A stretch of 64,000 nucleotides of DNA from Protoeuglena noctilucae (GCA_958009085.1 OY253681.1:124001-188000), one strand, 5' to 3'; shown: positions 3,601-62,923, counted from the stretch's first letter. The notes: generated from the letters alone by a model not told the origin. Made by a program: numbers and translations.

Positions 3601-4894
3601 CCCACCGCACAAACGACACCGTCTCCGTGTTGAACAGGTGGGAGGGGATGCCCTGGAGGCCCATCTCGGCCCAGCCCCAGCCGCAGAGGTGGGGAACACT
3701 CGCGAAGAGCTGCCGCCGCTCGCCTCCCTGCGAGCGAGCGGCGCGGGGCAGGGGTCAGGAGGCGATCCCCCGGTCAGAGCACTTGCCCCCGCGCCTGGAG
3801 GCACGCCGCTCACCATCGCCGCCATGTACATGTTGAGAAGAGCAGAGAGCACGGATTTCTGCAGCGCCTCGCCCAGGGGCTCGTCCAGCGCCTCGCGCCC
3901 CTCTGCCACTCTGCGGGCGGATTGAAGGGTGGCACGCGTCGCCCCCGTCCGCGTTCGGCCCCCCCCGCCGCCGCGCCGCCGCCGTTGATACGCGATAAAG
4001 CCGCCCGCGCTCCGCCGCGCGCCGCGCGATCGCCGGGGCGCGCCCACCTGGCCTGGAGTTCGGGGAGGAGGGCGAGCAGGCTGCTCGTGACGACGCCGCC
4101 GTTGCAGACCAGGACGTGGAGCGGCACCGTCTCCCGGACGTACATGATGTCGTTCCAGACGGATCCCGGCCCCGTCCCGTTCGGCTGGCCCCCGTCGTCG
4201 ACCGAGTAGCACCCCCATGTCCAGGGCCGACACGCGGACGGCAGGACGAAGGATCCTTCCAGGAGAGCGGCGCCGCCACCGCACATTTCCGACAGCGATA
4301 TCTGCGAACGGGGGGAGGGCGGCGCGCTCGCGGGCCGGGGGGGTGCGATAGGGAGTATCTGCCGAGACCCCCCCGCCGGAAAGCCGGCCCGCTCGCCGCG
4401 GGCGCGAGCGGCGCGGCGCCGAAGTGGAGCATTTCGATCGTGGATCACGAAGCCGGGCGCCGCGGACCAGAAGCCCCGCGCGCTCGCCTTGTATCCGGCG
4501 ACCTCCTCTTCGTCGGAGAGGGCCATGCGGAGGGGGAACTTCCAAAACCGATGCGGTCCCATGGTATCGAGGAGGATGCCGTAGCTCGTCGTCGGGACGC
4601 CGTCCGCCCGCGTCACCTCCATCTGCGCGCGCGGGCGCGGGGGTTTGCTCTGCAGCTCGGCCCGAGCCGCCCCGAGCTCGAGAGCGCCGGGGGCGGGCGG
4701 CAGGGGGCGCAAAATTTGATGAAATTGTCGAATTGGCGCGGGTGTGGCCCCGGAAGGCGGAATGACCCTGCATGGCCTCGCACCGACGGGCTGCATTCGT
4801 CGTCGGGTAGCGCCGTGACGACCAGGACGGACCCAGTCCAGAAATTAGGAGGGACAAACCGCTCATAACGAAGCAGGGGCCCGATGGCCGCCAT
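677..4894 (-). CDS. Multi-exon PhoD-like phosphatase family protein (fungal/algal PhoD_2 type), catalytically degenerate
   Basis: Spliced product has motifs in the family order: GPLLRY..WTGSVLVVT, RFWKFPL, SFVLP..WTW..S, VWNDI..PLHVLV, FASVPHL, AALRLYLLFLHHTT, VDHATVVL, RRVTVVS, MVHVATGS.LPPPPP. ATG at 4894, stop at 677. Some internal exons (about 2750-3560) are uncertain. Confidence 0.65.
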
Positions 4895-5319
4895 GGACCC
4901 CGGTCGCGTTTGCGAGGGCCCGAAAGGCCGACAGGCCAGCTCCTAGGGCCCGCCGGGCCAAGAAGAAGGTCGATGATGGCTCTACGCAGCGGTGCGACGC
5001 GGGAAGGGTCAAAGGGGCGCACAGGGCGAACGAATGTGCGGGTAGCCGCGCGGGACGATGCCTACTCCGCGCTGGGCTGGCCCACCCGGCGCTTGTTTGG
5101 CAACTAAACGCAACCGCTTGTCATCGGCGCGCACGTCGGCCCCTGCCTTCACTTCCCTGGCGTCAAACCAGGACTGACATCTGTCCCTGACGAGAGCGGC
5201 GTCCCAGGAAGCCAAATGCGCCCCCCGCCAGCGCTGTCGGAGCAAGAGGGTGGATAACACCAGGGCGACTCCTCGGATACCCCTGGAACCCTTCGTCCGA
5301 CCCGGGGGCTCACCGCGAC

Positions 5320-7111
5320 ATGGCGTCCAGCCTCGACACCCGCGCTGCGGGCGACGCCGTTGGCGACGTGGGGACTGACGCGCCGCAGGATGCCCACGAT
5401 CTGTACGGATTCGATGCTGGGGTCGCCGATGCCGGCGTGACCCCGGGGACGCTGGAGCACCTCGACGAACCGGGCGCTGCCCCTGGCGACGCACCGTCTG
5501 CCGCTGCCGAGGACCCGCGGGGACTTCCGGAGGACAGAGTGCCTGAGGCTCCTCATAAAGCGCTCGATAGGATCGACCAGCCCGGGCCCGCACCGCGGGC
5601 GGACGTGCCCTCACAAAACGCCAACACCGAGCCCTCGCCTCCGCCCGCGCGGGAGACGCGCACCGCGGAGGTCCAGACGGACCCGATCGACGATCTCGAC
5701 CGCTACTGCGTGGACTTGGACGCCGAGGCGCAGGCGCCGGGGCCCTCGCAGGTGCGAAAGCAGGGGGCGCGAGCGACAACGCTCCCGCCCCTCTCGGGCG
5801 CCCCGCGGAGGCTTCCTCGAAGAGCCCTACGACCGCCCGCTCTTCCTACCCGCAGAATCCGCGGGATGTCGTGTCGGACAGCATCGCAGACATTGCAGCG
5901 CTGTTGCGGTGCGTGGGGTGGCGTCGTTGACCCCCTCGTTTGACCATCAGAGCATATTTCGGCACTCTCACCGCTGAGCCGGACGCCGCCCTCGCACCCG
6001 CAGAGAGGCCCGCCGCATCGACCTGCAGCTGACGCGCGCCCAGCCCCGGTCCCACCCGTCGCAACGCGGATCCTCGACCGACGAAGCGGCCGAGCGCATC
6101 GCTGCAGAGATGGAGGAGCTCCTGGCCGAGCTCCGCGAGTGCCGCGCTGCCGACGAGACCACCACCGTGGCCACCGCCACTGTCGCGGACGCCACGGCAG
6201 GTGCTGAGGATGGCTCTCCCGACCACAGCCCTTCCCGCACGGGCCCCCTCCCCGCTGCGACAGACGGTGATTCTGACGCGGAGTACGAGGCGGTGCAGGC
6301 GGCGGCGCGGGCGTTGCTGGAGAAGCGGAGGAAGCACGAAAGGCTGGAGGAGATTGAAACGAGGATACGGTGAGGGGCGAGGCAGTGAGGGGTCGGTCGA
6401 TGGAGGCCAGGGAGGGTGCAGTACCGCCGGGTGGATTACCCGATACCCGTGTGGTGGGCCTGCTGGCAGAGATGGGCACTGCGAGGGTATGGGAAGTGTG
6501 CAAAGGCGTGATGCCACAAGTGTCACTGCGACGTGCCCTGATTGCAGGGACTTGGAGGCACAGCAGCGGGAGGTGGGGGCCCTGCGGCTGCAGCAGGAGC
6601 GCCTGGCCATGGCGGGGGTGGACGCGCGTGCCGTACTGCGTGCGCCATCGAGCAAGAGGATCATCACCGCGGCCAGCGCCTACCTCAGCCCCGTCGACAC
6701 GAACCGGGTGAGATGCCTGCCAGGCATTGCTCATAAGAGATTGTGTTTGTGTGTACTTTGTCACGACGTGGCGTGTCGTGCAACCCGAGTGTGACATGGT
6801 GATGACAGGCCGCCCCGTTTTGCGCGGCGCAGCAGCGGCCACTGCCGACGCGCCGCCGGGCCGCCGACGATCGGGGGAGCCCCGCGCCCGAGAGCGCCAA
6901 GGCATCGACCAGCCGGCCGCGGGTGTCCGGGGGAGCGTCGCCTGGGGGAGCGACGTCGCCGGAGCCGGGGAGCGACGCGACAGGCGCTGGGGAGGGGCGG
7001 TTGGCGGCGTCAGCGCGGGAGCCTAGCTACATGCGGCCGACGAAGAGCGTGAGCATGCGGGGGATGAGTGGGAGGGATGCACGGGGAGACGGGGGCACGG
7101 CATGGAAGTGA
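5320..7111 (+). CDS. Hypothetical acidic/coiled-coil protein (5 exons)
   Basis: GT-AG introns join in frame MASSLDTR..GPSQ / NPRDVV..ALLR / ..EMEELLAELREC..EIETRIR / DLEAQQRE..DTNR / AAPF..PSYMRPTKS..AWK*. No recognisable domain. Confidence 0.55.
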
Positions 7112-7807: not shown

Positions 7808-10455
7808 TCAAACGTTGTGCGAGGACCGCTGAGGGTACACGCCCAGACTGTTCTTGTACCCGTGCCCCTTGGCCTGCGTAAGGGGGAGGGGGAAAGGCAC
7901 GTGTCAGTAGCCGCCAGGCACGCCAGTGGCTACAAAGCAGATCAGCGACCAGGGCCGTGTGACTGTCGCACGGCACAACGGGCCATTGATGGTTACAGAG
8001 TCGCAGCCGCAGCCGCAGCCACCCCGGCCCTCGCCTTGGATGCCGAGGTGTAGGAGTGCAGCGTCGCGCCCCCTGCCTGGCTGCCTGCGAACCCTGTCGC
8101 CCCTGCCGCCCGCTTCTGCCGGTGCTTGCCCTGCGCCTGGTACGTGCTGCGCGATTGGAAGCCGTGATGGGCACTCGTGCCCGCCCCCGCCCCCGCCCCG
8201 CCTCCCCCCTTGGCCCGGGCCACAACCCTTGGGCCCGGGATGGACCCACTGGCCCCGCCAATGGGGGGCAAGTTGTGGTCCCCGTCGTGCTCCGTGTCGC
8301 TCGCTTCTGAGGGCACCTTGGAGTTGGCGCGGCTGCGGGTGACGAAGACGCAGGGGAAAGTCAGGTCAGGCCATGCAAAGCCGGGCAAGCACGGCGCTGA
8401 CCACGACACAAGGGGCGACACAAGGGGCGCCAGTCGCTGCGTCAAACCACCCTCTCAGGTCTCCTCAACAGCGAGTGCACGCAGCACAGTAGACCTTACC
8501 ATCTCATCCCACTTCCCAACACCACCCGAGCCATCCATGCTGTCATCTCGCTCACCTGTAGGACGTGCCGTGGACGGGCGGGATGCCGTCGTCCTTCTGC
8601 CGCATCGTGCCGCGCTGGATGCTCGGGAGCGTGTCGGAGCTCTTCTCCGCGTGCAGCTTGCCGCCCGCGGCCCCCGCCCCGGCGCCCGTGCCCGCCGCCG
8701 CGCCCGGCCCCGGACCCGCCTCGCTCTTGCGGCTCCCCGCGTCGCCCCGCCCGCGCCCTTCCGCCCCGTACAGCGACAGGCTGCCCTGACTCAGGCTCAG
8801 CTCCGGCGCCATCATGGCCCGCTGGCGCTTCTCCGCGTCCCGCAGGTCCTTGAAGTACGGATGCCGCAGCGCCTGCCGCGCCGACAGCCGGTCGTCGGGG
8901 TTGTACGCCAGCAGCCTGCGGGCGAGGGGCAGGGATTGAATCAATGCGATGGCTCATGCTCCGTCAATGACAGATATTGACTAGGATGACTAGGGTAGTG
9001 GGATAGCACCGTCAGCGGCCAGCTCTCCGGCTATGGCCGTCATGACGGCTGCCCCGACAAGTCATCGGACCCTTTGCCCCCATTGGCCCGCATCCTCACC
9101 GGTTGATGAGGTCGACGCACTCGGCGGGCACGTGCGGCACGAGCTTGTCGATGCCCATGCCCTGCTGCGGCGGGAAGTTGCAGTCCATGTGGGAGGACAG
9201 GCGCTTGAGCCGCTGCAGGAGCTCCGGGGGTGGCGTGCCCACCACGTTGTGGATCTTCTTGATCTGGTCCAACTCGTTGTTACCGGGGAACTGCGTGGTG
9301 GCCGTGGGGAAGAAAATGAGGATTGAGGCGGGGGTCGGGCGGCGCATTGAAAGCGAGCGGCGTGCCACTGCGCACAAACGGGACGTGTCGTGGGCGTGCG
9401 CATGCGATGCAGGCGCGACTGCATTTCCTCACCAGCGGGAAGAGGGACACGATCTCAAAGAACACGCACCCCACGCCCCACATGTCCATCTTGTAGTTGT
9501 AATAGCCGTCTGTCAAGAGGCACTCGGGCGCCCGGTACCACCGCGTGCTGATGTACTGCGGAGGCGGGTCGCAGGGCCCGTCTCGACATGTCCGGGGTCG
9601 GCTTATGCGAGCACGAGGTGGGCCGCCGCAGCTGCCATCACCTCCGTGAAGGGCTGCTTGGAGTGGATGCCGCGGCAGGACCCGAAGTCCGCGAGTTTGA
9701 GGCTTTCGTCCATGATGAGGATGTTCTCGGGCTTGATGTCGCGGTGGAAGATGCCGTTGCGGTGCATATGGTCCATCGCCTTCATCAGCTGGTACATGTA
9801 ACGCTTGACGCGGTCCTCCGCCACGTAATGGCGGCGCCCGCGGATCAGCTCGTAGATGTTCATGTCCATGAGCTCGAAGACGAGCGCCAGACGGCCCGTC
9901 GGCTGGTCGTAGAGCACCTCGAGGAGCTTGATAATGTTGGGGTGCGGCGACAGGCGCCTGCGGGGGAGGGGCGCGGGCCTCCGTGGGCCCTCGCGAAGGG
10001 GAGCGAAGAAAGGCGCGTGCGCCGAGGGCGACGGAACGCCGGGCGGCCACGCGCGGCGGGCTTCGGGGTGGCATGTTGCGCAGCACTCGCCGCAGAGCCT
10101 GGATCTCCCGGAGGTTGTTGACCTGCTCCAGCGAGTCGAAGTGGTTCTTCATGCACTTAATTGCCACATACTTGCCGTTCTTGATGCACTGCGCCTTCAG
10201 GACCTCGCTGAAGGTGCCCTCGCCCTTCTTGGCCACCAGGCGATACTCTGCTCCCGGAAGGAGGATTGCGCTCGCCCGACCCCACACCCAGACACTCAGA
10301 GTGCCCAGACTTCCCGCTTCGATGGCAAAGGCCGGCAAACAGACCCCAGCGGCCCGGAACGCCCAGCCATGGGGGGCAGCGGCCTGCGCCGCGCCGCGAG
10401 GCGACGACATTCGCGTCCGATAGCCAGGCCCATTGGCCCGCGACTCACTGTGCAT
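7808..10455 (-). CDS. LF4: MOK/RAGE-family MAPK-related kinase, flagellar length regulator LF4
   Basis: MHKYRLVAKKGEGTFSEVLKAQ, VAIKCMK, NNLREIQALRRL, HRDIKPEN, DFG, TEYISTRWYRAPE (TEY activation loop). 8 exons, first coding exon ATGCACA (7 nt), last exon ends ..SSHNV*. Confidence 0.93.
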
Positions 10456-11009: not shown

Positions 11010-13475
11010 ATGGCGCCTCGGGGATTGGGGGCGCTCCTCGCGATCGCCGCGGCGCTTTCAGGGCTGAAGTGCGTGCGCGCCCGATGCAAGTATCCGTCCA
11101 TCATCCATCGGCAACGCAAGTCCGCCCATCGCGCACGTCCTGGCCCCCTCCGCCCCCGCAGCGTGGCGTGGGGAGCGGCGTTCAACGTGACGGACCTCCG
11201 GGAGCGGCGCGAGGCCGGGGACGGCGTGATTTTTATGCTCCTGAGCCAGCTGCAGGACGTGCTGAACGCGCCGGACCGGACGGCCGACGTGGTCGTCCTT
11301 CTCCAGGCGGGGCAGGCCGGCGTGAACACGATGGGCCAGCTCCTCTTCCAGCGCCTCTCCCAGGCCGTCGAAGAGTACAAGCGCACGCACAGCGAGCGGG
11401 CCGCTCAGGAGATCGAGGCGAGGGCTCGATGCCTGCAGTTCGCCGCGTCTCGCGTGACATGCTCTCCATTCCCGACCGCGCCGATCTTGCGCCGTGCCAC
11501 GGGTCCGCCGTCGCCTCTCCGTCCCCAGATGTATCGCCAGGACCTTGAATACCTCAAGCAAGTTCCGCGCGTGATGGAAGAGCAGAGCCGGGAGTTCCGC
11601 GTGGCCGCCCGGTCGTTCCATCGCAGCCTGGCCGAGACGGGCCGGGAGGACGCCATCTTCTTCGTGGAGCTGCCCGAGTCAGACATGACCTTCAAGTGAG
11701 CAATTCTTAGGGGGTGGCTGGACCCCTGGTCAGAGTCGGCGCACATAGCTGGGGCACTGTGGCAGGGTGGGTGAGTGCGAGGGAGGTGGTTGCGGCAGCA
11801 TGTCGTCCCTTCCCGCACTGATTCCCTGCGCGTTTTCGTTCCCAGGACTGCCGCCAAGGAGCTCGGTCTGCAGCAGGCCATCGAGGTGGCCTACTTCCCC
11901 ACCACGGCCAGGTTTGCGCCTGTGGATGACCGGCGCATCGACCTGAAGGAGCACCCCGAGGTGAGAGGGGAGGGCGGTGGGTGAGCGTGGGATGTCAGCA
12001 AAGACGCGGTGACCGGCTTAGCGTACTGCAAGTTAAGAGGGTTGGGGCTTGGTAGCGCTGAACGAAGGACGTGAACCCTTTCAACCCTCGCCCACTCCCC
12101 AGACGCCCTTCACGGCTGAGACCCTGGTGGATTGGGTCGGCAAGCGGTCGGGCCTGCGTGCAGCCGTCCACCGATGGAGTCTCTTCCGCACCTGGTGGTG
12201 GCCCTTCCTGGCAGTCGCGGCACTCCTCGCGCTGCTCTACCTCGGACTCTTCCTCACCCTCTCCGGGCTCGCCGCCAACCCGTGGCTCATCAGCGGCGTG
12301 CTGCTCACGCTCTGGTGGTTCAGGCGAGGCGTGGGTGTATTGTATGCTGTGCCCCTGGCTGGTTCTCGCACCACAGTTCGTCAATCGTCAACGCATCCAT
12401 GCGCACGCTCACCCCACAACACCACCGCTCGCACACTCACCCCACCGCACCCCCGCACGCTCACCCCACGCTCACCTTACGCTCGCCCCCACAGCTCCTC
12501 CGGTGGTCTCTTCAACATCATCAAGCACGTCCCTCTCGTGGCCGTCGCCCCCGCCGGGCCCGGCCGCCCCAGGCAGGTCCACTTCTTCCTGGACCATCCC
12601 CAGATGCAGCTGGGGCTGGAGGGCTACTCCATGGGGGCGTGCATGCTCATCGCGTCCGCACTGCTCCTACTCGTCACCGGTGAGGCGACTCCACTCACAT
12701 TTGTTAAGTTGCCGTCATGCAATATCGCTTGCAATCTGGTGCATCCATTTCCTCATTCCCGCCCCCTCGCCCATCCTCCTCTCCCTCGCACCACCCTTCT
12801 CACTCACCCACTACCCTCTTACCCACCCCTTCACCCATCACCCACACGTGTTACCCCCCCATCATCGACCCTCCCATCCATCCCCAGTGGGCGTCCCCAA
12901 GATGCCCCCCGGCAAACAGCGCATGGCGGGGCTGGTGGTGTCGGTGGTAGCGGCCGCCTGGGCCGTCCTCATCCACGACCTCTTCCACCGCAAGGCGGGG
13001 CTGCACATCCGCCCGTTCGTATCCATGGCCGTCTTCGAGCCGGTGAGAGTGCCTGACTGTTTTGATCGCGATGTCTAATTGTGTCGATACTGGTACACGA
13101 GCCCGTGACAGTAACAAGGCAACTGCGATATTAGTTCCACGCAAGGGTTAAAGAGGGTGCACACTCGCTCCCTTAACATCGCCCCACGCCCCTGTCCCTG
13201 ACCCACAGGTTTTCAGCGCTCTCCGTCTCGACTTTGTCAACGCCATTCCCTTCTTCGTCGCTGCTCTTGTCTTTGTACCCACCGTCTATTTCACCGTCAA
13301 GCTGCTTGACTGGGGTATTGGGGGCAAGCGAGGGAGCGGTGCGACTGGTGTTGCTGAGGGGGTTACGGGGAGTGGTGATGGTGGCGACGGCGGGGTGGCA
13401 GCGGGGGAGGGAGCAAGCGGGGGGGCAGGGGACGGTGGGGAGGGGACACAGAGGGCAGACAAGGCGGCGGAGTGA
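11010..13475 (+). CDS. Oligosaccharyltransferase subunit, OST3/OST6 family
   Basis: Signal peptide MAPRGLGALLAIAAALS, lumenal domain (REFRVAARSF, IFFVEL, TAETLVDWVGKRSG), TM helices, SSGGLFNIIKHVPL and QLGLEGY motifs typical of the family. Confidence 0.8.
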
Positions 13476-13739
13476 ACGACGCGGCTGGGTGCTGTGTTGG
13501 TTGGAGTTGTGTTGGTGCGTGTTTCTGCAAATTCTGTAGACTGTCGTTAGTGTGAAGTCCTCGCGCTTCCATCATTTGAACAACGTGGTCAATGGTAAAT
13601 GGTAACGTTTCAGCAATCAAATTTTATCGATTCATTGTTGGTTTCAATAGGCGGCCCGGCCGGCCCCCCGCGTATGTCACACTTATCACAACCGTCGCAT
13701 CGCCACCCTGCCACCGCCCCTCCCTCTGAACAAACCGCC

Positions 13740-16671
13740 TCACTCGGCGGGCCCGCCCACGGCGACCGTCCCGCGGGGCCCAAGGAACGACGACTGGCGC
13801 CCGGGGCGGTCCACCCGCGACTGCACCACGCGACCCCCCGTGCCCTCGTCGGCCGCGTCTGCCTCCTTCTCCGCAGCCGTCTCCTCCCTGGTCTGCTCGA
13901 AGAACTCCTTCTCCAATGCGAGCATCTCCTGCTCCGTCATCGCGCCCAGCTCCTCGCCCTGACCCTCGTTGGCCTTCTTGCGCGCCCGGGCCTGCGAAGT
14001 GAGGCGGGGGAGTGGCTGACATGATGCACTCGTGATCAACTTGCCAACACGGCATTCAATATAACCAGATGATTGTGAGCTAGCACGCAGGAGCACCGGT
14101 CGTACCGCCAGGCCGTGCCTCATCTTGTCACCCCCCCCACACCCCGCACACCCCCACTCTCTGAGCCACCCCCCTCACCTTGGCCTCCCTGGCCCGCGCC
14201 TCGAGGTTCTTCTCCCTCTTGAACTCCCTCTCGAACAGCTGCTGAATGGCCTGCTTCTCCCCGGCCTGGAGCCCCACCAGGCTCTCGGACAGCTCCAGCA
14301 CGTGCACCGAGCCACGCTCGTCGCCCACCGACACCACGCGGCCCTGGGGCTGGATGTTGAAGGACGTCAGGGCGCGGTCCGACACTTGCAGCGACAGCGT
14401 GGGGGAGCCGCTCTGCGGGGAGGGGGCGGAGGTGCAGTGTGGGAGGTGGTCACGTGCAGTGGGACGTGCGACGTGCGACGAGCCGCGCGACGTTGCTTTG
14501 TAAAGTAACATCAGTGGGCCTTCGCGATGAGCCGCATCCAGCATCGCCGGAACTCAAAAGCACGTCTTGCCTTGTGGTAGAGGTCCCAGACGTCGAACAC
14601 GCCGTCCTGGCGGGTGGTGAAGAACACCCCGGGCCGCGTGGGGGACCAGCCGCCGCCCGTGAGGTAGGTGTTGTAGTAGGGGGTGGTCATGATGGGGGTC
14701 TTGATGTCCTCGGACCACATCATGGCGCACCAGTCGCCCACGGTGAGGAAGTTCTTGGGGTAGAGCGGGTTGCGCTTCAGGGCGTAGACGGGCCCGCGGT
14801 GGCCCGTGCCGCCCGAGCCGTACGAGGCGCCCACGCGGTCCGCGGGGGTCTTGGCCTTGCGGTTGCACGAGATGACGACGCCCTGCTCGGTGCCGATCAT
14901 GAACTTGGTGGCGCCGGCCGCCGCGTCGTACTCGAGGCTGCACGCCCCCAGCACCGCGTTGGGCGTGGCCTTCTCGGCCACCGTGAGCGTCTCCACGGGC
15001 TCCTGCATGCGCCGGACGTCCCAGAAGAACACCTCCCCGTCCGTCGAGCACGTCATGATCTCCACGCCCGTCTTGGACTGGAGCCAAGCGCAGTCGTAGA
15101 TGGGGTCCTTGTGGGAGTTCTCGATCGGGGACATGCCCACGGGGCGACCGCCCTGGCTCACGTCGAACCACACCAGCTGCCCGTTGTACTGCCCCGCGCC
15201 CAGCCAGTTCTCGTTCTTGGGGCTGTAGTTGATGCAGCACAGCTGGGACGCGGGCGTGAGCGTCTCGCGCGGCGTCGTGGGGTTGTTCATGTCCCAGATG
15301 TACGACTGCGGGTCGGGAAGTGAGGTGACAGGGTCAGGAGGTAAGCCGTGGTTGCGCAAGTGCGGCTGCTAGACGACATGAGACGACGGCACATGTGCCG
15401 TGGGCCCTTGCCTGCAGCGGCATGTTGGTGGGCTGGGACTGGAAGCGTAGGATGGAGTAGGCGACTGCGACGCGCGTCCCCGAGTGGTGGTAGGACAGGT
15501 ACGATGCCGACCGGGGCACGGGCGAGGGGTCCCGGAACACGGTCAGAGTCTTGGCCTCCGGGAGCTCATTCGAGTGGTCCACCTCGACGTCCGTGAAGAA
15601 GCTCTCGTAGATGTTGACCGCGTTGTTCTGCTTGATGACCTCCTCAGCCGTCGTGCCCAGGCGCGCCACGGTCGCTGCGGGGTGGGCCGGGTGGGCGGGA
15701 AAGGGGTTTGAATGGTGCCTGGTGGCTGACGGAGACTCGGATGTCGACTGCGGCGGTCGCTCTGGGTTCTGGCCACCGCTGGCATCCCCTACGTTCACCA
15801 ACACCAGCCGCCCCATGTTCATCGTTGCGCATGCCATGCTGACCACGCTTGATCCTTCTCATCCATTCCATAACCAACTCACCGATGTACTCCTCGTCCC
15901 TCTCGACGCGCTTGATGAGCCGCGTCGTCTGCGTGGCCTCTTTCGAGTCCACGTCCTTGGGCCAGCCACCCTCCGTGTGCACCATGCCAATCGTGCGGTA
16001 TGTCTTCTGCTTCGTGTTCACGTAAGCCTCCGAGAACTGCGAAAGAGGACGTCGCGAGACGATTAGATCACAGCAAGGGGCGGAACGCAGAGCTGCTGAG
16101 AGCAGGCACGGCTGGGCTGCGTGAGGCAAGGGTGCAGGAGGGGCGTGGGAGGGGAGCGGGTCTGCGCGTGCGGTTTGCCCTCGCCTGAGGAACGACCTCG
16201 ACGATCGTGGTGCACGGCTTGCGCTGGATCATCTTCTTTTGAAGCTCCTGGTCCGGGCGTTGGTCGTACATCAGCTGCAGGGGCGCGAGGTTGCAGGTTA
16301 ACTCAGAGTCAGCAATCACCGCTTGCTTTGAGCGACAGCAGAGCTTCAGAGCAGCGCGGCGCGAACGCCGGGGCTGCGCGAGGGCAGAGCATGGGCCGTT
16401 CGTACATCCTCGCCCTCTCTGCACGCACCTCGGCCTGGAACTCTCGGAACGTCGGGTGCCGCCCGAAGTCCTTCCGGAGCCGGATATACTCATATGATAT
16501 CTGCGGGGAGAGGTCGAGGCGGCGCGCTGGAACGGACCCAAACTACGTCGCATACATGCACTGCCCCTCCCGAGCGCGGGTCGAGCTGCCGGCCCTGTCC
16601 CGCAGGCTCAGCTGAGAGTTGTTACGGTATACGAGAGCCTGGAGAAGCCGCAAGCTCCCTCTCACCTCCAT
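13740..16671 (-). CDS. DNAI2: Outer-arm dynein intermediate chain 2 (IC2/ODA6, DNAI2 orthologue), WD40
   Basis: ME/ISYEYIRLRKDFGRHP, HTEGGWPKDVD, IKQNNAVNIY, SYIWDMNNP, WLQSKTG, WSPTRPGVFFT, FEREFKREKNLE, matching the recalled Chlamydomonas IC2 sequence. Confidence 0.93.
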
Positions 16672-17348: not shown

Positions 17349-17460
17349 CATCGGGAAAACCGCGAGTCTGGCGTCAGTCGGATCATCCCCGTGATACCCA
17401 GGAATCGTGGGGATCATCCCGCTGATCCCGGGGTATCAGAGGGATCATCCCAGTGATCTC
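17349..17460 (+). repeat. Left TIR plus subterminal 31-bp-period repeats (GGATCATCCC core)
   Basis: GATCATCCC starts at 17381, 17412 and 17443. 17380-17395 GGATCATCCCCGTGAT is the exact reverse complement of 22816-22831. Confidence 0.88.
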
Positions 17461-18725
17461 ACTGACGACACAGACTGTAATGTAAACCCTCATTGAGCCC
17501 AGTGATTCCAGCCGCGCGCCCGATCTCCCTGGGGAGGCCGTTTTACGCGGCGCGGTTACGGCCACGGCGCACCCGGGATGCGAGAGGCCGCTGGGAGCAG
17601 TTTCGCGGCATTTCGTCGTGGTCGGGGATCGCGGGGAGCGGGGCCCACTCGGGAGCGCAGCGGCGCCGGAAGCGTTAGCCGAGGCTATCCCGCCGCCTAT
17701 CTTCCTTCTCGGCCGCGATCAGACCTATCTTGATCGCGATCGGACGCATCTTTTGGGCACCCGCGCTCCGGGGCCCGCGCGGCCCGGGGGGCTCCGTTCG
17801 GCCCGTAATCGCTCCCTAGCGTAGCTATTGGTATTTCAATCCCTACGCCGAGGTTACATGACCATCCGTGACGCTCTAGGCAACGCACTCATGCACGCAC
17901 ATGCAGCCGGACTCGGGCGGCCGCAGGCGCGACGGGAGCGCGCAGCGACCACCGCCAGAGGCACCGACCGCTTGTTCCGGACGCTGCCGCTCCATCGGGG
18001 AGCGGCGCTCCGGCACTCGGGCCAGGCACTCGGGAGATGGTGGCGTGCGCGACTCCGCCGTGCCGACGGCCGCCCCAGGAGTCGATGACCACCGCTGCGG
18101 GGCGCCGCGGACGCCAGACGACAGACAAGGGGCATGGGTCGGCGGACGAGCCATGGCGGGCCCGGCCAGCACCCGACCAGCGCCGGAACTTGGGACGAGG
18201 TGGCACGTGCGCCTGCGTGCTTGTTAGGCGAAGTTAGAGTCAGTCTCGGGGTGAGAGAGTGCAGGCACGGTGCCAGGTACAGTAAGCAAGTACAGAGATA
18301 CCACGCTGGCGGACCAGCCCTTCGTCCCTCCCAGCCAACCAACCCCCCCTTGCACACCTGACCGTGTCGCAGACCCCACCGGTAGCGCAGCAGACCAACC
18401 GCGCACCTCGGGGACAGCGACAATGTCCGACCTGATCTAGTCATGCGTATGCTGCATCTCACCTCACGGGAGCTGGCCCCTCCCCTCCCCAGCCACGTCA
18501 GCACACCTCGCAGATGGCTCAGCAGCAGGCTGCACTCTCACCCTAGAGAGGGACGATGATCCAGCGCTGTTCGCACCAGCAGCGCCGAGCCTCGCCTGTG
18601 CGCGGTGCTGTCGCTGCAGCCCTGCAATCCACCCCCGCTTGCCTGGAGGACTGACGACCCCTGAGCCTGCCTGACCCACAGAGCGCGCGCTGGACTTTCC
18701 TCACCTCCGCTTCCACGCCCTCACC

Positions 18726-46900: not shown

Positions 46901-46960
46901 CGGAGTGTCCCGGTGCACGCGATGGCGGGGGAGGGCGACGAGCTGGACGGCCTGGATTAG
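43937..46960 (+). CDS. Leucine-rich-repeat dynein assembly factor, DNAAF1/ODA7-like
   Basis: LKQLCKE..PELNDVLHLTNKG..IQNL..FTGLKCLYLEGN, SDS22-type LRRs, LRR cap GNPVVSKTPHYRKRLLANMPALNFLDD, GGFEAERAER, acidic tail ending ELDGLD*. Confidence 0.8.
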
Positions 46961-49838: not shown

Positions 49839-52063
49839 ATGTCCTTCTCTGTGATCGCTTCCCGCGCCCTGGGCTCCCTGCTCGGCTGCCGGCCGGTGGC
49901 GAGGTCGTCCCTGCAGCGCGGTGAGCCCCGGAGGGCGAGGAGGGCGCGGAAGGGGGCGCGCTGCTTTCCTGCACCTTCATTATCGCCGATTTCGACGGCC
50001 TGAATGCTCCCGCCATCGCATCTCTGCGCGGCCTGGGCGAAATGCGCCGGTGAACTCGTCGGTCCGCTCGATGGGGAACTGCGGGCCCTGGCTGCGGGTT
50101 TTCAGCATCCGCGGCGACGAGATGTCGAGAATGTATTGCGCACGCGTGCCCGCGTTTCCTGGGCGTGCCGATCCCCGCCGGCAGACGCGCGGGACCTGGG
50201 GTCCAGGAAGCAGCGGAGTTTGCGGCCCCGCGCCGGGCGGCGAGTCGGGCGCCCAGGCGAGCGCGGTCTCCGCCCTCCCCGCAGTGTGCTCGTGCGTCGC
50301 GTCCGCCCCCCTGCGCCCCGCGATGGCCGCGCCGGCCCAGCGGATGGTGGCGACCCGCGCCGCCGCCGCCGCCGTCGCCCAGCGGACTGCCGAGGGCCTC
50401 CAGGTGCCGCACGGCGGCAAGCTCGTGAACCTGATGGTCGACGAGTCCAAGGCCGCCGCCCTCAAGGCCGGCTGCAACCGCACGCTCGAGTGCTCGGACC
50501 GCAACGCCTGTGACGTCGAGCTCCTCGTGGTCGGCGGCTTCTCCCCCCTGGATGGCTTCATGTCCCAGGCCGACTACGAGTCGGTCGTGAAGAACATGCG
50601 CCTCTCCAACGGCCTCCTCTTCGGCCTCCCTATCGTGATGGACACCCGCGATGACTCCGTCCAGGCAAGAACCACGCCGAGTGTGTTGTGACGACCAGTA
50701 AGGGTGTCGTGGGGCACGCCGGGCGTCTGGATGAAGTCACACAGACATGAACAAGCCAGATCTCGCTTACTTCTCTTACACTGTGCCACATGGGCGCCCT
50801 CAGCTGCCAGGCTGACCCCGCCTGCGCGTTGCGTGCGCCTCAGGTCGGGGACAAGGTGCTGCTGACGTACAAGGGCGAGGAGCTGGCGGTGATGACGGTC
50901 GAGTCCAAGTACATGCCGAACAAGGTCGAGGAGGCCAAGCACTGCTACGGCACCACGTCCATCGAGCACCCCGCCGTGCGCATGATCACGATGGAGCGTG
51001 GGCCCATCTACCTGGGCGGCAAGGTCCAGGGCCTCAAGCTCCCCACCAGGATATTCAGCGCTTGCTGCCTCAGCGAGGGTCGATGACACGGCTGCAGGGT
51101 GGGGTGCTCTGCCATGGCGTCACCCTCACCGCTTGCACCACGTCTCCATCGCAGGGAGTACCAGGCGCAGACGCCGGCGCAGGTCCGCGCCACGCTCCCG
51201 GCCAACAAGGACGCTGTGGCCTTCCAGTGCCGCAACCCCATCCACCGCGCCCACTACGAGCTGTTCGTTCGCGCTCTCGACGCCCCCAATGTCGGCGAGG
51301 GCGCCGTGGTGCTCGTGCACCCCACCATGGGCCCCACGCAGGAGGACGACATTTCTGGCCTCATCCGCTACCGCACCTACGAGGTGCTGAAGGAGGAGAC
51401 CAACAACCCCGCCATCCGCTGGGCGTACCTGCCCTACTCCATGCACATGGCCGGGCCCCGCGAGGCCATCCAGCACATGATCATCCGCAAGAACTACGGC
51501 TGCACGCACTTCATCATCGGCCGCGACATGGCCGGGTGCAAGGCGAGAGGCGCTGATGTTGCTTGGGGGCGGCTGGGTGGGGTACGGGGGCGCAGGCGGG
51601 GCAGTGAGTGGGATGCGTGGTGGTGCTTGGTCGATGGCTGGGCTGGGGCATTCCGCTGCGTCACAACCTCGGCCGGCACGGCACTGCCCAGCCCTGGTGT
51701 GGCACCCTGAGAGCAGGGAAGCAACCACCGGGCATAACACACTGCACCCCGCCCCATCTCCCGCAGTCTTCGCTGACCGGGGATGACTTCTACGGCGCAT
51801 TCGACGCTCAGGATACGGCCAACAAGCACGCGGCGGAGCTGGGCATGCAGACGGTGCCGTCTCGCATGGTGGTGTACACGGAGGAGCATGGGTACGTCTA
51901 TGCCGAGGAGGCCAAGGAGCAGGGCCTGAACGTGCTGAAGCTGTCCGGGACGCAGTTCCGCAAGATGCTGCGCGGGGGCGAGGACATCCCCGAGTGGTTC
52001 GCGTTCAAGTCGGTCGTGTCGGTGCTTCGCGAGGCGGTGGCGGCCGAGAGCGACAGCGAGTGA
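49839..52063 (+). CDS. ATP sulfurylase (sulfate adenylyltransferase), probably plastid-targeted
   Basis: Ser/Arg/Ala-rich transit-like leader; PHGGKLVNL, GGFSPLDGFM, AFQCRNPIHRAHYE, MHMAGPREAIQHMIIRKNYGCTHFIIGRD, LSGTQFRKMLRGGEDIPEWF. Confidence 0.95.
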
Positions 52064-54201: not shown

Positions 54202-56140
54202 ATGGCAGCTTCCAGGTTTTGGTGCGGGCCTGATGACGACGAAACGAGCGACGGCGAGGATGCCGGCCCCAGCCCCGGTGGCGTGCGAGCGCTCAGCGTT
54301 CCCGAGTTGACTGCGAGCAGGTGCGTGATGCGCGCAGCCCCGCATAGGCGGCGCACAAAGCCAGCGACTGCGAACGACATCCAGCATTCGCGCAGCAGGA
54401 TTGCCGATGCCCTTTTCGCGGACGAGCGAGATGCAACGTGGCACGTGCATCATCGGCGTGCCACGCTCGACCTGGCGCTCGTCGTCGCGCAGCTATATCC
54501 TGGCTTGGACAAGAGGGCGCAGGCACTGGTGGAAGAATGGTGCAATCAAGCGCTCGTGACGTGTCCGCCGCTGGAGGGCAACGTGTCAGCGTGCACCAGG
54601 CTGATGCAGGCGGCCGAGCGGGCGGGGATGCCGGCCAAGCGCCTGGCCGCGCGGCAGCGGGCGTGGCGGCAGCGACAGATCGAGATTGCCCGCGCGACGG
54701 AGCCGCCGGTGGCCGAGGAGGAGCCCGACGGCGTGGCGGGGGTGCAGGCGAGCAGCACGCGATACAAAGGGTTAGCATGCCCACAAGTGCCTGAACACAG
54801 GCGCCCCAGCCCTAGCAGTGAGGGCTGCTGATTGTATCAGAGAGCCCCCCAACGTTTGGCCTCCCCAGGACCTGCCCGATGACGTCCTCCGCATGGTACT
54901 GTCGGCCCTCGCGCCGCGGGACTTGGCGCGGTGCATGTGCGTGAGCCGGTCGTGGCGCCGCGTGGCCAGCGACGGCGAGTGGTGGCGTCGCATCACGCAG
55001 GCCGTGGCGCCTTATCTCTCCGCTGCTGCCACGATCCCTTCAGGCGCCGCCATTGCCAACCCCTTGCCCCGCAACCCAGGTGAGCCCGACTGACGGCACC
55101 CGCCGCGTGCCTGGCTTGCACGGAGACACGTGAACACAAATGCAAATACAAACGGCATTCTCGCTCGCTCCCACGCAGGCCCCTGGCACGCGTGCCTGTC
55201 TACTGAGGTGCGGCGCATGGGGCCCACGGCAGCTGCGATGCTGGAGGCAGGGGTGCCAGTGCAATGGGGCCCGATGGCGGGACGGGCGGCGACGGGCGCA
55301 GGGGTCACTGACGCACCTGGTGTGGCAGAGGGCGATCGGGGCAGCGACCAGGGTGGCGATGGACCACGGGAGCCCTCACCCTCGCCATCACCCTCGCCAC
55401 CGCCACCGCCGCCCACGGCTGAGCCGCTGTGGACGGTGCTGCTTCGCGGGGACGCCCGGCCGGCCCAGGTCTCGCAGGCGCTTTGGTGGGAGCTATCGGC
55501 CTCTTGGCTGGCCGTGACTGCCAACTTGTCTCGATCGGGGCACGTGGCGAGGGAGGCCCTGGTCGCGAGGGCCCCGTCCACGATCGACGTCATGCTGCCG
55601 TGGGGGCGGGCGCTCAGACAGGAGGGCCAGGGCGCGTGCGGGGGTGGCGGCGGCGGTTTTGGAGACGGGGAGTTACCCACGGTAACACCGGGGCAGCTGG
55701 GTAGGTCAGAGATGGGCGGGGCGTCTGGGCTGCCCCGTGACACCCACCGCCCTGGGACTGGCCCAACGGCAGCAAGAGGAGGTGTTGCTGTAAGTGACCC
55801 TTCCAGTAGCAGGTGCCACGGGCTGCCGTTGGCGGGTGCGCGGATGGTGTATCCTTGCACGAGAGCGCTGCCCCTGCAGCGGCCTCGACACCGCCCCACG
55901 CCCGTGGCGGCTCTGCCTGTGGTGACTGCGTGGGTGCAGGGAGAGAGTGGGGGTGCTAGCGGGGGTGCGGGGAGGGGTGGGGTGGGTGGGGAAGCGTGCT
56001 TAATAGGTGCGGGGGGGCACGAGAGGGAGGGCAGGGCTGGGGTGGTTGCGAGCGATGGGAAGGGGGGCGTGGGTGGCAAGGGGAGGGGCGCGTTTGCGGG
56101 GTTGTTGGCGGAGGTGGACGGAGCGGATTTGGAAACATAA
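54202..56140 (+). CDS. F-box domain protein
   Basis: Exon at about 54870-55079 encodes DLPDDVLRMVLSALAPRDLARCMCVSRSWRRVASDGEWWRR; flanking exons splice in frame. Confidence 0.8.
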
Positions 56141-56487: not shown

Positions 56488-59400
56488 TCAGTGCTTGCGG
56501 GCCATGAGCATCTCGCGCATGGCGTTGAGCGCTGAGCCCGCCTTGAACCAGGTGAGTTGGTTGTCGTTGAAGGTGTGGTTGACCTGGAACTCGTACGTGG
56601 AGTTGTCGGCACGCTTGCCCACAACCTTGAGGGGGACGCCCTCCTTGGGAGGGAGGCCCACGATGGAGAGGCGGTCCGAGGGGGCGATCTGGGGGGGGTG
56701 AGGGTGAGTGGGGGTAGCAGTGAGGGTGGGAATGAGGGTGGGGGTGGCAGTGAGGGTGAGGGTGGGGGTGTTGGCGGGGGAGGGGGTGGCAGGAGGGCGG
56801 GGTTGGTAACGCAGCTGATGGTGCGTTCCCTCGCAAGCAAGTGCGCACATACACACGAGCGTAATCATGCAAGTGCATGCCACTCCGTGTCCCTCTCTTC
56901 TCGCCTTGTCGTAGTCGGCGGGGTTGGCGAAGGTGAGCGGGAGCATGCCCTGCTTCTTCAGGTTGGTCTCGTGGATGCGCGCGAAACTCTTCACGATGAC
57001 CGCCACGCCGCCCAGGTGGCGGGGCTCCAGGGCCGCGTGCTCGCGGGAAGAGCCCTCGCCTGGGGGTAGCAGTGGGGGTGAGGGTGAGGGTGTCAATGAG
57101 GGTGAGGGTGCGAGTGAGAGTGCGAGTGAGAGTGAGGGTGTGAATGGGCAAGGGTGATGGCAGGGGTAGCTGTGGTGCCAATGCCTTTCATCTCTAGCTC
57201 CTACCCCTCATCTCTCACCGTAGTTCTCGTCGCCCACCACCACCCACGGCAGCCCGGCCTTCTTGTACGCCCTCGCCGTGTCTGGCACCGCCCCCAGCTG
57301 CCCCGTCAGCACGTTCCGCACGCTGTTGATCGCGTCGTTGTCCGCGTTCACCGCCCCGATCAGGAGGTTGTTGGAGATGTTGTCGAGGTGGCCGCGGTTC
57401 TTGAGCCAGGGGCCGGCCATCGAGATGTGGTCGGTCGTGCACTTGCCCTTGGCCTTGATCAGGATGGCCGCGTCCTGGGGAGGGGGGCGGGGGGAGGGGG
57501 GGTTGTTAGGTGGGGTGAAGGGGTGGTAGAGTGGGTGAGGGGTGGTGACAAGGGAGGGGTGGTGGGGCGGGAGTGCAGGGGTGCTGACGGGAGAGGTGAC
57601 GGAAAGTTAATATATAGTTGGGTGCAGGTGTCACTCATCACATCGATCGTCGAGTATGATCACCTGGACGTCCTTGCCGTCCCACTTGTTGAAGGGCTGC
57701 AGGAGCTGCAGGCGCTGGGAGCTGGGGTCCACCACCACGCTGATGCCGTCGCGCTGGGCCTTGTCGGTGGGGGGAGCCTGGAACGTGTCCTTGCCAAGGT
57801 CGAAGCCCTGAGGGGGGTTGAGAGTGGTGGTGATGGACGAGTGAAATGCATGGGAGGTGTGGTTGCCCATCGCACGCTAGGACGCTGTCAGCCCACCCCC
57901 ATCCCCCCTGCTGCTCTGCCACTCACCTTCTTGGGCAGCTCGTCCCCCAACTGCTCACCCACCCCACCGCTCTACCATCATAACCCCCACCTCCCCCACC
58001 ACTCGCCTTCTTGGGCAGCTCGTCCCCCTCCGGCGGCGCCAGTGACACCTCCGTCCCGTCCGCGGCCACCAGCTTGTCCGTCTCGGGGTTGAAGGTGAGG
58101 TCGCCCGCGATGGCGAACGCCGTCACCACCTCGGGGGACGTCACGAAGGCGTGCGTGCCAGGGTTGCCGTCGTTGCGGCCCGTAAAGCTGCAAGGAGGGT
58201 GGGGTGGGGTGGGGTGGGGTGAGGTGAGGTGAGTGAGGCAGCTTGGGGTGAGGTGGTGAGGAGGTGAGGAGGTAAGGTGAGGCGTGTGCGGGGCGGGGAA
58301 GCGGGGCGAGCGTCACATGGCGATGGGCTGTGGAACGTGCCACAATCCACATCCCCTCTCCCATCTGCCAAAGTAACAGTGACTCACTTGCGGTTGTAGG
58401 AGGTGACGATAGAGTTCTTCTCCCCCTTCTTGACGTCCGTCCGCTTCCACTGCCCGATGCAGGGGCCGCACGCGTTGGCCAGCACCGTGCCCCCCACCTT
58501 CTCAAACACCTCCAGCAGGCCGTCGCGCTCGATCGTCGCGCGGATCTGCTCGGAACCGGGCGTGATCATGAACGGGACCTGGAGGGAGAGGGGGGACATC
58601 GTAAGGATATGGGCGATGGCGTCACGCCCGTTGATGCCCCACGCAGCAACCTCAATCTGTAGTACCCGCCCCTCAACGCATGGCCTTACTGCACCCCCGC
58701 ACGTTGCACACAATCTTCGTTTTACTGCTCCTAAACTAACACCCTCCCACCCACTTTCGCACACCCCAGAGCCTCCCCACGCACACCCCACGCCCCTCAC
58801 CTGCGCCTTGATCCCGGCCTTGAGCGCCTGCCTGGCCACGGCCGCCGCCCGCGCCATGTCCTCATACGAAGAGTTGGTGCAGCTGCCGATGAGGGCGGCC
58901 TTGAGCTCCGCGGGCCAGCCGTTGGCGCGCACGGCCTCGCCCAGCTTGGAGATGGGCGTGGCGAGGTCGGGCGTGAAGGGCCCGTTCACGTGGGGTTCCA
59001 GGGCGCTCAAGTCGATCTCGATGAGCTGGTCGTACGAGGCACCCTCGTCGGGGCGCAGGTACTCCTTGAACGAATCGGCGAGGCTGGCGGCGGGCTCGCG
59101 GCCCGTGGCAGCCAGGTAGTCGTACATGCGGCGGTTGAAGGGGAAGAGGGAGGTCGTGGCGCCGATCTCGGCGCCCATGTTGCAGATCGTGCCCATGCCC
59201 GTGCAGGAGATGTTGTCCACCCCCGGGCCGTGGTACTCGACGATCGCCCCCGTGCCGCCCTTGACGGTCAGGATGCCCGCCAGCTTGCAGATGACGTCCT
59301 TGGGGGAGGTCCACCGGGACATCTTGCCCGTCAGGCGCACACCGATCACCTGGGGGGAGAGGGGGCGGGTGAGTGTGAGTGTGCTTGCGCATTGCGAGTG

Positions 59401-61134: not shown

Positions 61135-61664
61135 GCGCTCCAGCGGGCGGAAACCGCGAGCATGGACCCCGGGCAAGGCTGCCGCTCCCCCCTCGCGGGC
61201 GACCCTTATTCCGCTAAGATCCTTGAACGCGGGTAGAGTATGCATCAAAATCGACCCGACGAGCCTCCCAACGGCGCAGGCAGGTGTGCAAGCGCGCCGC
61301 GGGAAGGCTTCTGCGCTCACCTTCAGGGCCGAGTACCTCCAGCGATTCATCTTGCACCGTGGGTGCGAAGGTGTGGGGAAACGGCCCACGAACCGGCGCA
61401 GATGAAGCGGGCGGGCAGGGATTGTTGCGCTGACACTTGGCTGACCGCAGTTCTTCAGGGAGACGGCCGATGGAGCCCGCGAGTCCACTGCCGCCATCAG
61501 AAGCCGCCTCTCCCCCCCGCCGTCGCCGCCCTATCCGCAAGCAGCGAGCGCAGAGGTCACTTGCGTCGCCGTGTTGACTCTTCGACATCGCTGCGCCTAG
61601 GCTCGTCCTCAGGGCTCTGGAACCGAACGGCTGGGGAGCCCCGTCGGTGCGGACGGTGGCAGCG

Positions 61665-62923
61665 ATGAGCCAGCTCAGCCTCCTCGTCAATCGGCTCCTT
61701 GGCATCCACGGTGCGTCTCGAGAGTGGGCTCTCGCAGCACCCTCGCCATCTCCCCGCATCTACACTCATTTGTCCTAGCCAGTGGATGCCGCTCTGGGGA
61801 CCCTCGAGCGCCCTCCGCCACAGCAGCGCGGCCCAAAATGGTCACCGAGTGCGCCCTGACCAGGCCGAGAGAGACCGCGGCCCCTCGCATTTGAGCCCGT
61901 CGCACTCTATGTCGCTTCCCAAGCTCGGTCGTGAAGGCCTTCGCCGTGCCCCGCCGCAGGAGACAGCCCGTGGCCCACGCTCCTGCTGCTCACGTTGGCG
62001 CTGGCCATCCTGAGCCATCTCTTGTCCGTCTTTTCCCCGGGGGGCAACAGGGCCGCTCGACAGGCACGGCGGGCGCCCGCCAGCAAGCGCCCGCCGCCCG
62101 CCACGCTGCCCGAGCCGGGGTCGCTGGGAGAGCAGGCGAGGCAGCGGCATCGTCACTCGCATCCCGGCGTGAATCGCAACAGCGCCGCGAGGGTCTTGCA
62201 ACCGGTCTGCCGCGTCACTGCCCCAGGTGTATCGCAAGGGCCGGCTTCTGTCGCGCGTCACGCTGTCCTTGCCCGGGACCGTGCTGACCCAGAGCACCCC
62301 AGCCGAGCTCAGCCGGGGGGCGTCGCTGGTGCCGTCGGGGGCGGAGATCGTGCGATGGCTGTGCGCCGCGACGGACTTGTATTTGATGGCTGAAGTGGGG
62401 GACGACGCTGCAGAGGCGCACGTGCGGGGGTGCTTGGAGGCCGCGGGGTGAGGGCAGAGGCGACCATCGGCGCTGCGGGACGCGAGGGATTGTTAACGAA
62501 TGTTTGTTTCTCGTTCTCTTACCTCTCAGGGTCGTGGGGGACAAGGCGGGGCAGGTGCCTCGCCACCGGGTCGTCTTTTGCGGGACGGAGGTGGGCAAGA
62601 CAAGCATCGTGCGGCAGCTGGAGCCGGAGCTCCACGTGGACGCATCGCGAGACACCGTCTCGGCGCTCCAGTGAGTAGGAATGCGTTGGTGTGCGGCTGG
62701 CGGCATCACCTCAGAGATTGCCTGGCTCCGTCATCGGATACTTGGTTGCTTAAGTGAAGCTTGTTGGGTCCTCGTCAAGCCCTAAGCACGTTTCCTGCAT
62801 CTCTCTCGCAGGCGCTTCCTACCCCAGTTGCTGCTGGTGGTTTCTAAGGATGAGGGCGGGCCCGCAACAGTGGCACCGAACATCGGCAGGGCCACGTCTC
62901 TCGTGGACTACTTCAGGCACTGA
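61665..62923 (+). CDS. PEX22: Peroxisome biogenesis protein 22 (plant type)
   Basis: N-terminal TM (PTLLLLTLALAILSHLL), RVTLSLPGTVL..STPAEL, DLYLMAEVGDD..E, VVFCGTEVGKTSIVRQLEPELHVD, QRFLPQLL, SLVDYF; colinear with the recalled Arabidopsis PEX22 sequence; 5 exons in frame. Confidence 0.85.

Follow-up and report, generated by a model that had tools for sequence, protein, structure and literature searches.

GC-AG introns form about a third of the curated set in a 64-kb, GC-rich window of probable pedinophyte affinity

Introns that begin with GC instead of GT usually make up ~1% of the total in eukaryotes, animals and plants included. The window considered here, the whole 64-kb stretch OY253681.1:124001-188000, raises the question of whether a genome can carry such introns at a far higher rate and, if so, why. 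A first-pass annotation, made from the sequence by eye, held that GC-AG introns are very frequent in this stretch and put them at 25-30 of about 100. The high frequency is confirmed, as 26 of the 77 introns in our curated set (34%) have GC as their first and AG as their last dinucleotide, and chance is excluded by an excess of the corresponding donor motif. The estimated number of GC introns was accurate, and it was the denominator (~77) and hence the share (~34%) that had to be revised. The window contains no N, has a G+C content of 63-70%, and reaches a third-position G+C of 0.85-0.95 in its coding frames.

Introns were predicted with a Viterbi gene finder, with codon log-odds trained on the window and with donor positions +1 and +2 left unscored, so that GT and GC received equal treatment. 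The gene finder returned 79 introns, with good coding on both sides in 60 (38 GT, 22 GC). These calls were curated with Pfam and NCBIfam profile coordinates, homologous proteins and one RNA contig, and a GT intron overlooked by the gene finder, at 37415-37559 in a dynein heavy chain gene, was added through homology. The resulting set covers 13 genes and comprises 26 GC-AG and 51 GT-AG introns, which span 76-409 nucleotides and occur at a density of ~1.3 per kb; GC introns are present in 12 of the 13 genes. Protein homology or the RNA contig backs 47 junctions, of which 16 are GC-AG (34%) and 31 GT. A further 27 are ab initio calls (9 GC, 18 GT), and three are of low confidence (1 GC, 2 GT). 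Removal of the intron restores the frame of a conserved protein in 16 of the 26 GC cases, the other 10 being called on coding potential only.

The abundance of GC donors can also be seen independently of gene models, by counting motifs on both strands against 100 dinucleotide-preserving shuffles. The motif AGGCRAG occurs 47 times, compared with 24.6 ± 4.8 in the shuffles, none of which reaches 47, and AGGTRAG occurs 45 times against 11.2 ± 3.4. The control motif AGGGRAG lies at expectation, with 18 occurrences against 20.6. Of these 47 sites, 23 coincide with predicted donors, enough to explain the excess of ~22. The total score of the gene models tells a similar story. It rises from 2755 with GT donors only to 3044 with GT and GC (+289), whereas seven decoy dinucleotides give 2809-2883 (+53-127). 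Each decoy still yields 10-17 "good" introns, which we suspect lie a few bases from real GC sites; since a decoy intron may sit within a base or two of a true one, only the total score is informative in this control.

The genes that harbor these introns were identified from Pfam and NCBIfam scans of the exon translations, and are as follows.

10250-7808, minus strand: LF4-like kinase; 2 GC and 4 GT introns.
11162-13042, plus strand: OST3/OST6; 2 GC and 3 GT.
16500-13740, minus strand: outer-arm dynein intermediate chain IC2; 3 GC and 3 GT.
23626-39783, plus strand: axonemal dynein heavy chain (DHC); 6 GC and 14 GT.
43491-40164, minus strand: topoisomerase VI B (TOP6B); 1 GC and 7 GT.
43937-46960, plus strand: LRR protein; 2 GC and 3 GT.
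49482-47289, minus strand: Serinc; 2 GC and 4 GT.
50285-52063, plus strand: ATP sulfurylase; 3 GC and 0 GT.
From 54604, plus strand: F-box protein; 1 GC and 0 GT.
60785-56488, minus strand: mitochondrial aconitase, 5' end unsettled; 2 GC and 7 GT.
In addition, a 'methyltransferase' gene has 1 GC and 3 GT introns, and two unnamed genes together have 1 GC and 3 GT.

Two tests based on homology establish where the junctions lie. In one, exon translations were scanned singly and profile coordinates were compared across each junction. Continuity is exact at the GC junctions 27751, 58006 and 51543, and near-exact at 10090, 48626, 38007 and 50665, as well as at 12324 on a weak match. GT junctions, taken as controls, behave in the same way, with AAA_6 positions 99/100 and 171/172 providing examples. 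In the other test, all GT-AG and GC-AG pairs that keep the frame and lie within 60 nucleotides of a predicted junction were scored against homologous proteins. A GC pair is the top-scoring choice at all three GC junctions of IC2, 15-20 above the best GT pair, at both GC junctions of aconitase, 17-23 above, and at four of the six in DHC, for which the search among longer proteins reached only 2000-residue homologs with 39-43% identity. Moreover, no comparable in-phase GT donor is found within 90 nucleotides of 24 of the 26 kept GC donors, with GC sites scoring 3.7-7.6 and GT alternatives no higher than 1.8; the exceptions in this check were the kept, non-consensus donor at 51060 and a site at 48826 that has since been dropped. 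The individual GC-AG introns are given below, with exon letters in lower case, a slash at the exon-intron boundary or between adjoining profile positions or residues, and "rank 0" denoting the top-scoring pair.

4302-4487, minus: 'methyltransferase', aag/GCGAGC, 186 nt; ab initio only, no comparable in-phase GT.
7874-8034, minus: LF4-like kinase, aag/GCGAGG, 161 nt; ab initio only.
9958-10090, minus: LF4-like kinase, gcg/GCGAGT, 133 nt; Pfam Pkinase 2-51 then 56-154, four residues for four profile positions.
11418-11528, plus: OST3/OST6, gag/GCGAGG, 111 nt; ab initio only.
12324-12494, plus: OST3/OST6, cag/GCGAGG, 171 nt; ab initio and weak Pfam OST3_OST6 125-188 (E 0.26) then 197-250, 8 residues for 8 positions.
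14413-14570, minus: IC2, aag/GCAAGA, 158 nt; best of 17 GY-AG alternatives against 12 homologs, 111.1 versus 96.4 for the best GT.
15306-15411, minus: IC2, cag/GCAAGG, 106 nt; best of 32, 102.8 versus 86.3 for the best GT.
16037-16184, minus: IC2, cag/GCGAGG, 148 nt; best of 47, 95.7 versus 75.2.
24214-24305, plus: DHC, cag/GCAAGC, 92 nt; tblastn with P0082, residues 291/293; rank 0 of 12 with 3 homologs.
25619-25752, plus: DHC, cag/GCGAGG, 134 nt; donor tops the GC-AG scores with another acceptor, best GT 20 lower, weak conservation.
26140-26352, plus: DHC, aag/GCGAGG, 213 nt; rank 0 of 53, best GT 14 lower.
26557-26802, plus: DHC, aag/GCGAGT, 246 nt; ab initio; homology rank 6 of 63 with 2 homologs; no consensus in-phase GT.
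27751-27973, plus: DHC, cag/GCGAGA, 223 nt; Pfam DHC_N2 298/299 on the flanking residues; rank 0 of 60.
38007-38169, plus: DHC, aag/GCGAGG, 163 nt; rank 0 of 30, 105.5 versus 89.6 for the best GT; Pfam AAA_lid_11 from 52 to 55.
40807-40944, minus: TOP6B, cag/GCGAGG, 138 nt; ab initio; match to NF003218 337-450 stops at the final residue of the exon, next exon without match.
44705-44809, plus: LRR protein, gag/GCGAGA, 105 nt; ab initio only.
44974-45187, plus: LRR protein, aag/GCAAGG, 214 nt; ab initio only.
48516-48626, minus: Serinc, cag/GCGAGT, 111 nt; Pfam Serinc 125-169 then 174-230, 5 residues for 4 positions.
49038-49137, minus: Serinc, aag/GCGAGG, 100 nt; ab initio only.
50665-50843, plus: ATP sulfurylase, cag/GCAAGA, 179 nt; in the read-through open reading frame NCBIfam matches end at residues 113-115, exon end at 114; NF003166 94/95 within 3 residues.
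51060-51158, plus: ATP sulfurylase, agc/GCTTGC ... GGGAG/, 99 nt; TIGR00339 position 164 ends at nucleotide 51056, 165 starts at 51162.
51543-51766, plus: ATP sulfurylase, aag/GCGAGA, 224 nt; TIGR00339 293/294 at the exon end, 294 at the next exon's first residue.
54748-54868, plus: F-box protein, cag/GCGAGC, 121 nt; ab initio; residue 1 of the next exon is position 3 of the F-box-like profile.
56689-56904, minus: aconitase, aag/GCGAGA, 216 nt; rank 0 of 22 with 12 homologs, 116.2 versus 99.2; P0230 residue 737 on both sides.
57808-58006, minus: aconitase, aag/GCGAGT, 199 nt; TIGR01340 502/503; rank 0 of 40, 81.5 versus 58.9.
62136-62226, plus: possible GC-AG intron in an unnamed gene, cag/GCGAGG, 91 nt; low-confidence ab initio call with weak coding scores.

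The twelve plus-strand GC sites cited in the first-pass annotation all read AG/GC(A/G)AG and were all recovered by the gene finder; eleven are kept and one, at 19950, fails. Its minus-strand counts likewise hold for LF4 (2), IC2 (3), Serinc (2), aconitase (2) and TOP6B (1), with only one of the two introns proposed for the 'methyltransferase' accepted. The middle intron of ATP sulfurylase stands apart, in that its ends are non-consensus, unlike those of all other GC introns of the window. Homology places it within two residues and, as read from the sequence, either 51060-51158 or 51038-51154 leaves only GC donors in frame and no GT. The gene finder had called the latter, and the intron was shifted to 51060-51158 on profile coordinates. 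An AT-AC, U12-like reading at 51051-51161 was ruled out by protein length and by the lack of a branch motif. The U12-type donor /RTATCCTT, which goes with a TCCTTAAC branch site, is not that of the GC introns, whose donor is GC[GA]AG in 25 of the 26.

The sequence around the GC donors is tighter than that around the GT donors. AG precedes the intron in 24 of 26 GC cases compared with 31 of 51 GT cases (p=0.0035), and RAG occupies +3 to +5 in 25 of 26 compared with 33 of 51 (p=0.0019), although neither difference is significant on the verified junctions. The full context AG/G.RAG is found in 24 of 26 GC donors and 17 of 51 GT donors (p<0.0001), a difference that persists on the verified junctions (14 of 16 against 13 of 31, p=0.004), and this upholds the earlier claim that GC donors nearly always follow an exonic AG while GT donors are laxer. 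A at +3 is likewise enriched, at 5 of 26 compared with 1 of 51 (p=0.015; verified, 4 of 16 against 1 of 31, p=0.04). Since a donor matrix was used to pick the ab initio GC sites, the figures for the whole set carry some bias, to which the verified junctions are less exposed. This context is what one would see if other parts of the 5' splice site made good the pairing with U1 lost at +2, in line with the compensation through exonic U1/U5 pairing proposed in the first-pass annotation, an interpretation that is partly supported. The remaining donor positions have a stronger consensus in GC-AG introns in general, as older splice-site surveys show, and this is not specific to one lineage.

At their other end the two classes are alike. 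The pyrimidine share at -20 to -4 is 0.75 in GC and 0.76 in GT introns, and both use CGCAG most often as acceptor. The motif YTRAY, at a median of 34 nucleotides from the 3' end, occurs in 8 of 27 GC and 17 of 50 GT introns (in the list as it stood before one correction). GC introns have a mean length of 155 nucleotides and GT introns one of 186 (p=0.06).

Curation removed a number of calls of both classes. In DHC, a GC call at 28180 (41 nt) and GT calls at 32499 and 39410 only patched frameshifts at which the protein alignment has no gap. A GC call in Serinc at 48826 (59 nt) gave way to a GT donor at 48850, which coincides with the end of the Pfam match and fits better. The GC calls at 59335, 11570, 52952 and 3344 were antisense, or very long with poor flanks, and GT calls were dropped at 61320 and 60578 (in the 5' end of aconitase), 45308 (831 nt), 20608, 12680-13876 and 34889. 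Finally, GC calls at 19950, 20800 and 21417 were dropped as lying within a high-copy stretch at ~17400-22900. There the depth of the DNA run X5 is ~4144, compared with ~237 around it (~17-fold), and depth is also high in three metatranscriptomes; contigs of two RNA runs read straight through 19950-20031. All runs show the same four base differences in this stretch, and no Pfam match was obtained for any of its open reading frames of at least 70 residues. RNA contig ends at 19723 and 21162 abut minus-strand GTGAG donors, and coding potential favours the plus strand.

Read evidence was drawn from three marine metatranscriptome runs and the DNA run X5 over the region 19501-39500. The results concern the 31 of 2,897 contig pieces and the 15 of 44 joints that were listed, the joints being dominated by long skips from the DNA run. 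One GT intron, 35388-35624, is confirmed by RNA, as contig 6 of run X1 joins 35383 to 35621 with a 4-nt ambiguity, and several contig pieces start or end a few bases from predicted exon ends (34200, 36754, 39142). RNA depth is ~0-4 over 23.5-29 kb, a region that includes the five N-terminal GC introns of DHC. A piece of run X2, 28699-28994, lies almost wholly within a GT intron, so this run carries genomic or unspliced material. The contigs of X5, which may be the data from which the window was assembled, cover six GC donors of DHC with no differing letters. The DHC frame itself shifts three times, at 28160-28175, 32485-32500 and 39430-39465; the alignment to homologs has no gap at these places, and conserved residues carry on in the other frame. 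Contigs of X5 match the window at all three, and the frameshifts mean either that the gene broke recently or that the window and X5 have consensus errors in common.

In what organism does this occur? A quick maximum-likelihood tree of IC2, built from 48 rows (the window, 22 named and 25 unnamed proteins, picked from 120 listed), groups the window with three metagenome proteins and Pedinophyceae sp. YPF-701 with SH-aLRT support of 100 for this one gene. The organism is therefore probably a pedinophyte or a near relative, and it is marine, since near-identical sequence is present in marine metatranscriptomes. A metagenome scan with a 245-residue IC2 exon gave 47 related loci, of which the closest are three near-identical contigs, L001-L003, with 77% identity in IC2 and 65% G+C. 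In their IC2 the only introns are two near residues 24 and 54, after which comes a single 1.6-kb exon, compared with six introns in the window, at residues 24, 54, 105, 193, 438 and 516. The positions 24 and 54 are shared; the other four, two GC and two GT, are absent from all 47 loci, including intron-rich ones. Near residue 54, the window has cag/GCGAGGG (16037-16184) where L003 has cag/GTGAGTT. In L003:9200-11227, and also in L001 and L002, the near-intronless IC2 is adjoined by a 7.8-kb single-exon gene, and intron density differs sharply between close relatives.

Repeats among the introns bear on their origin. An all-against-all blastn of the 77 introns found a CCCACA-type simple repeat common to three, all other scores being near those of shuffled introns, and no direct-repeat family was detected among the introns of the window. 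The 6/12-nt tandem repeat lies in DHC 29369-29684 and in aconitase 56904-56689 and 57218-57060, spans 29487-29686, 56679-56800 and 57031-57164, and in each of them is rich in C on the transcribed strand.

The window thus holds GC introns at a high share, with a tighter donor context, 3' ends like those of GT introns, and no repeat ancestry. The explanation we consider probable is that these are ordinary U2-type GC-AG introns that have accumulated under GC pressure, processed by a standard spliceosome with compensation by the rest of the donor. T-to-C changes at +2 would arise or be fixed often, because the genome is very GC-rich. A C at +2 would be tolerated only where A-2, G-1, G+1, R+3, A+4 and G+5 keep enough pairing with U1 and U6, which would be why GC donors are nearly always AG/GC[GA]AG while GT donors are lax. 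Both this cause and its extension to the whole genome are what we infer from the window.

A number of observations weigh against this explanation, or against the introns on which it is built. Among the pieces and joints listed, no spliced RNA contig spans any GC intron and no predicted intron coincides with any of the 15 joints, and a contig of run X2 (24147-24432, depth 4) runs unspliced through the GC intron 24214-24305. Nine GC calls and one low-confidence call are supported by the gene finder alone, which also gave false GC calls later removed by homology or RNA (28180, 48826, 51038, 19950, 21417 and others). Within DHC, which with its three apparent frameshifts may be a decaying gene, the GC junctions 25619 (rank 3) and 26557 (rank 6, in a poorly conserved tail) are weakly settled. 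The 20.7 kb of L003, at 65% G+C, yield three predicted introns, all GT, and hence the high intron density and GC donors are not common to the nearest sampled relative, as judged from one gene and small numbers. Moreover, GC content is not the whole cause, since L003 uses GT at 65% and Micromonas RCC299 has 2.7% GC-AG introns at 64% G+C (PMC3033335). A genome-wide share cannot be derived from one 64-kb window. The false calls that patched frameshifts or fell at the wrong site, the broken frame of DHC and the want of an RNA junction at any GC intron also speak for an artefact, in which exon ends were mis-called, bases were called in error or the splice sites belong to decayed pseudogenes. On the other hand, sixteen junctions are fixed by homology, including those of the intact-frame housekeeping genes aconitase, ATP sulfurylase and IC2; the AGGCRAG excess equals the number of called sites; at the six DHC donors the X5 contigs and the window have the same letters; and the GC share of DHC (6 of 20) is not above that of the other genes (20 of 57). 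An artefact is therefore largely refuted here, and we regard it as very improbable.

Two further explanations accept the introns as real. The GC-AG introns could stem from a mobile family of introners with a GC or GY donor consensus, and so record a recent invasion and not a tolerance at +2. Such an origin has a precedent in Micromonas pusilla CCMP1545, where Verhelst et al. (2013, PMC3879977) assign the GC donor excess to IE-A1 introners with the donor AG/GYGCGT, 53% of them with GC, and it would suit a window that carries far more introns than the closest relative does and has four IC2 positions found in none of the 47 related loci. Yet the introns of the window form no repeat family beyond the simple repeat in three, vary broadly in length, and have the donor GC[GA]AG and not GYGCGT, and one GC intron occupies an old position common to relatives, all of which makes introners an unlikely source. 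Alternatively, the splicing machinery may have changed, through a U1 variant able to pair with C at +2, or through altered proofreading by U1C, Prp8 or U6, such that GC and GT would be nearly equivalent. A share of 34%, far above the usual level, and the poor performance of G+C content as a predictor in Micromonas RCC299 are in keeping with this, and base modification or U1 snRNP proteins are put forward as possible causes in PMC3033335. The same paper reports unchanged U1 5' ends in two high-GC-AG algae, M. pusilla and Aureococcus. In the window, GC is not equal to GT, as it needs the fuller consensus, which argues that U1 pairs in its standard register and that a C at +2 carries a penalty, and a changed machinery appears rather unlikely; a search with Rfam found no small nuclear RNA genes in the 64 kb.

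Returning to ordinary U2-type introns under GC pressure, a bolder extension is that about one third of the introns genome-wide are GC-AG without introner ancestry, which would exceed any share reported for a green alga, and that the 5' splice site is undergoing a continuing shift under GC pressure or a loosened check at +2. We put this forward tentatively and with more doubt than belief. If it were true, the GC set would mix an old position, GT in the nearest relative, with lineage-specific ones, while close relatives are intron-poor and use GT. No new kind of splicing is revealed by the finding. In practical terms, gene prediction in this genome fails badly unless GC donors are allowed, as in ATP sulfurylase, where all three introns are GC-AG. 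The lineage also offers an independent handle on the question of why GC donors build up in certain GC-rich genomes but not in others with the same G+C; it appears to be introner-free and has an intron-poor, GT-using relative. The phenomenon is known in kind, but a share of around one third without visible introners seems to be unreported for this lineage in the searchable literature. A full-text search on GC-AG introns in pedinophytes gave a single paper, which deals with the nucleomorph of a chlorarachniophyte. Word searches of the YPF701 genome preprint brought up no statement about splice sites, with 'splice' appearing 0 times and 'intron' once, in relation to chloroplast genomes.

The first-pass annotation placed high GC-AG rates mainly in haptophytes and dinoflagellates, a view that does not hold, as Iwata and Gotoh (2011, PMC3033335) list shares of 39.6% for Aureococcus, 22.2% for Micromonas pusilla and 7.7% for Chlorella sp., link high shares to high G+C, find the U1 5' end unchanged and call the origin an enigma. 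In a 2024 preprint (10.1101/2024.10.30.620910), ~14-17% is given for Aureococcus strains and ~14% for Pelagomonas and is ascribed to GC content. M. pusilla CCMP1545 resembles the present case in being a marine green alga of ~65% G+C, with GC-AG introns tens of times more frequent than usual and a preference for exonic AG. It differs in that its GC donors belong to the IE-A1 family, whereas the 77 introns of the window contain no family; the intron density of the window is also much higher, and by the IC2 tree the window is Pedinophyceae-like and not mamiellophycean. Chlorella sp. NC64A is a core chlorophyte of high G+C with a raised GC-AG share, though one that is four- to five-fold below that of the window. 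Aureococcus anophagefferens and Pelagomonas calceolata share with the window a very high proportion of GC-AG introns in a very GC-rich picoplankton genome, with the U1 5' end unchanged there, but they are stramenopiles with few introns per gene, and introners are known in Aureococcus. The GC-AG introns of animals and plants, for their part, are of the U2 type and have the same acceptor as those described here, and it is in frequency that they differ, at ~1% there compared with ~34% in the window.

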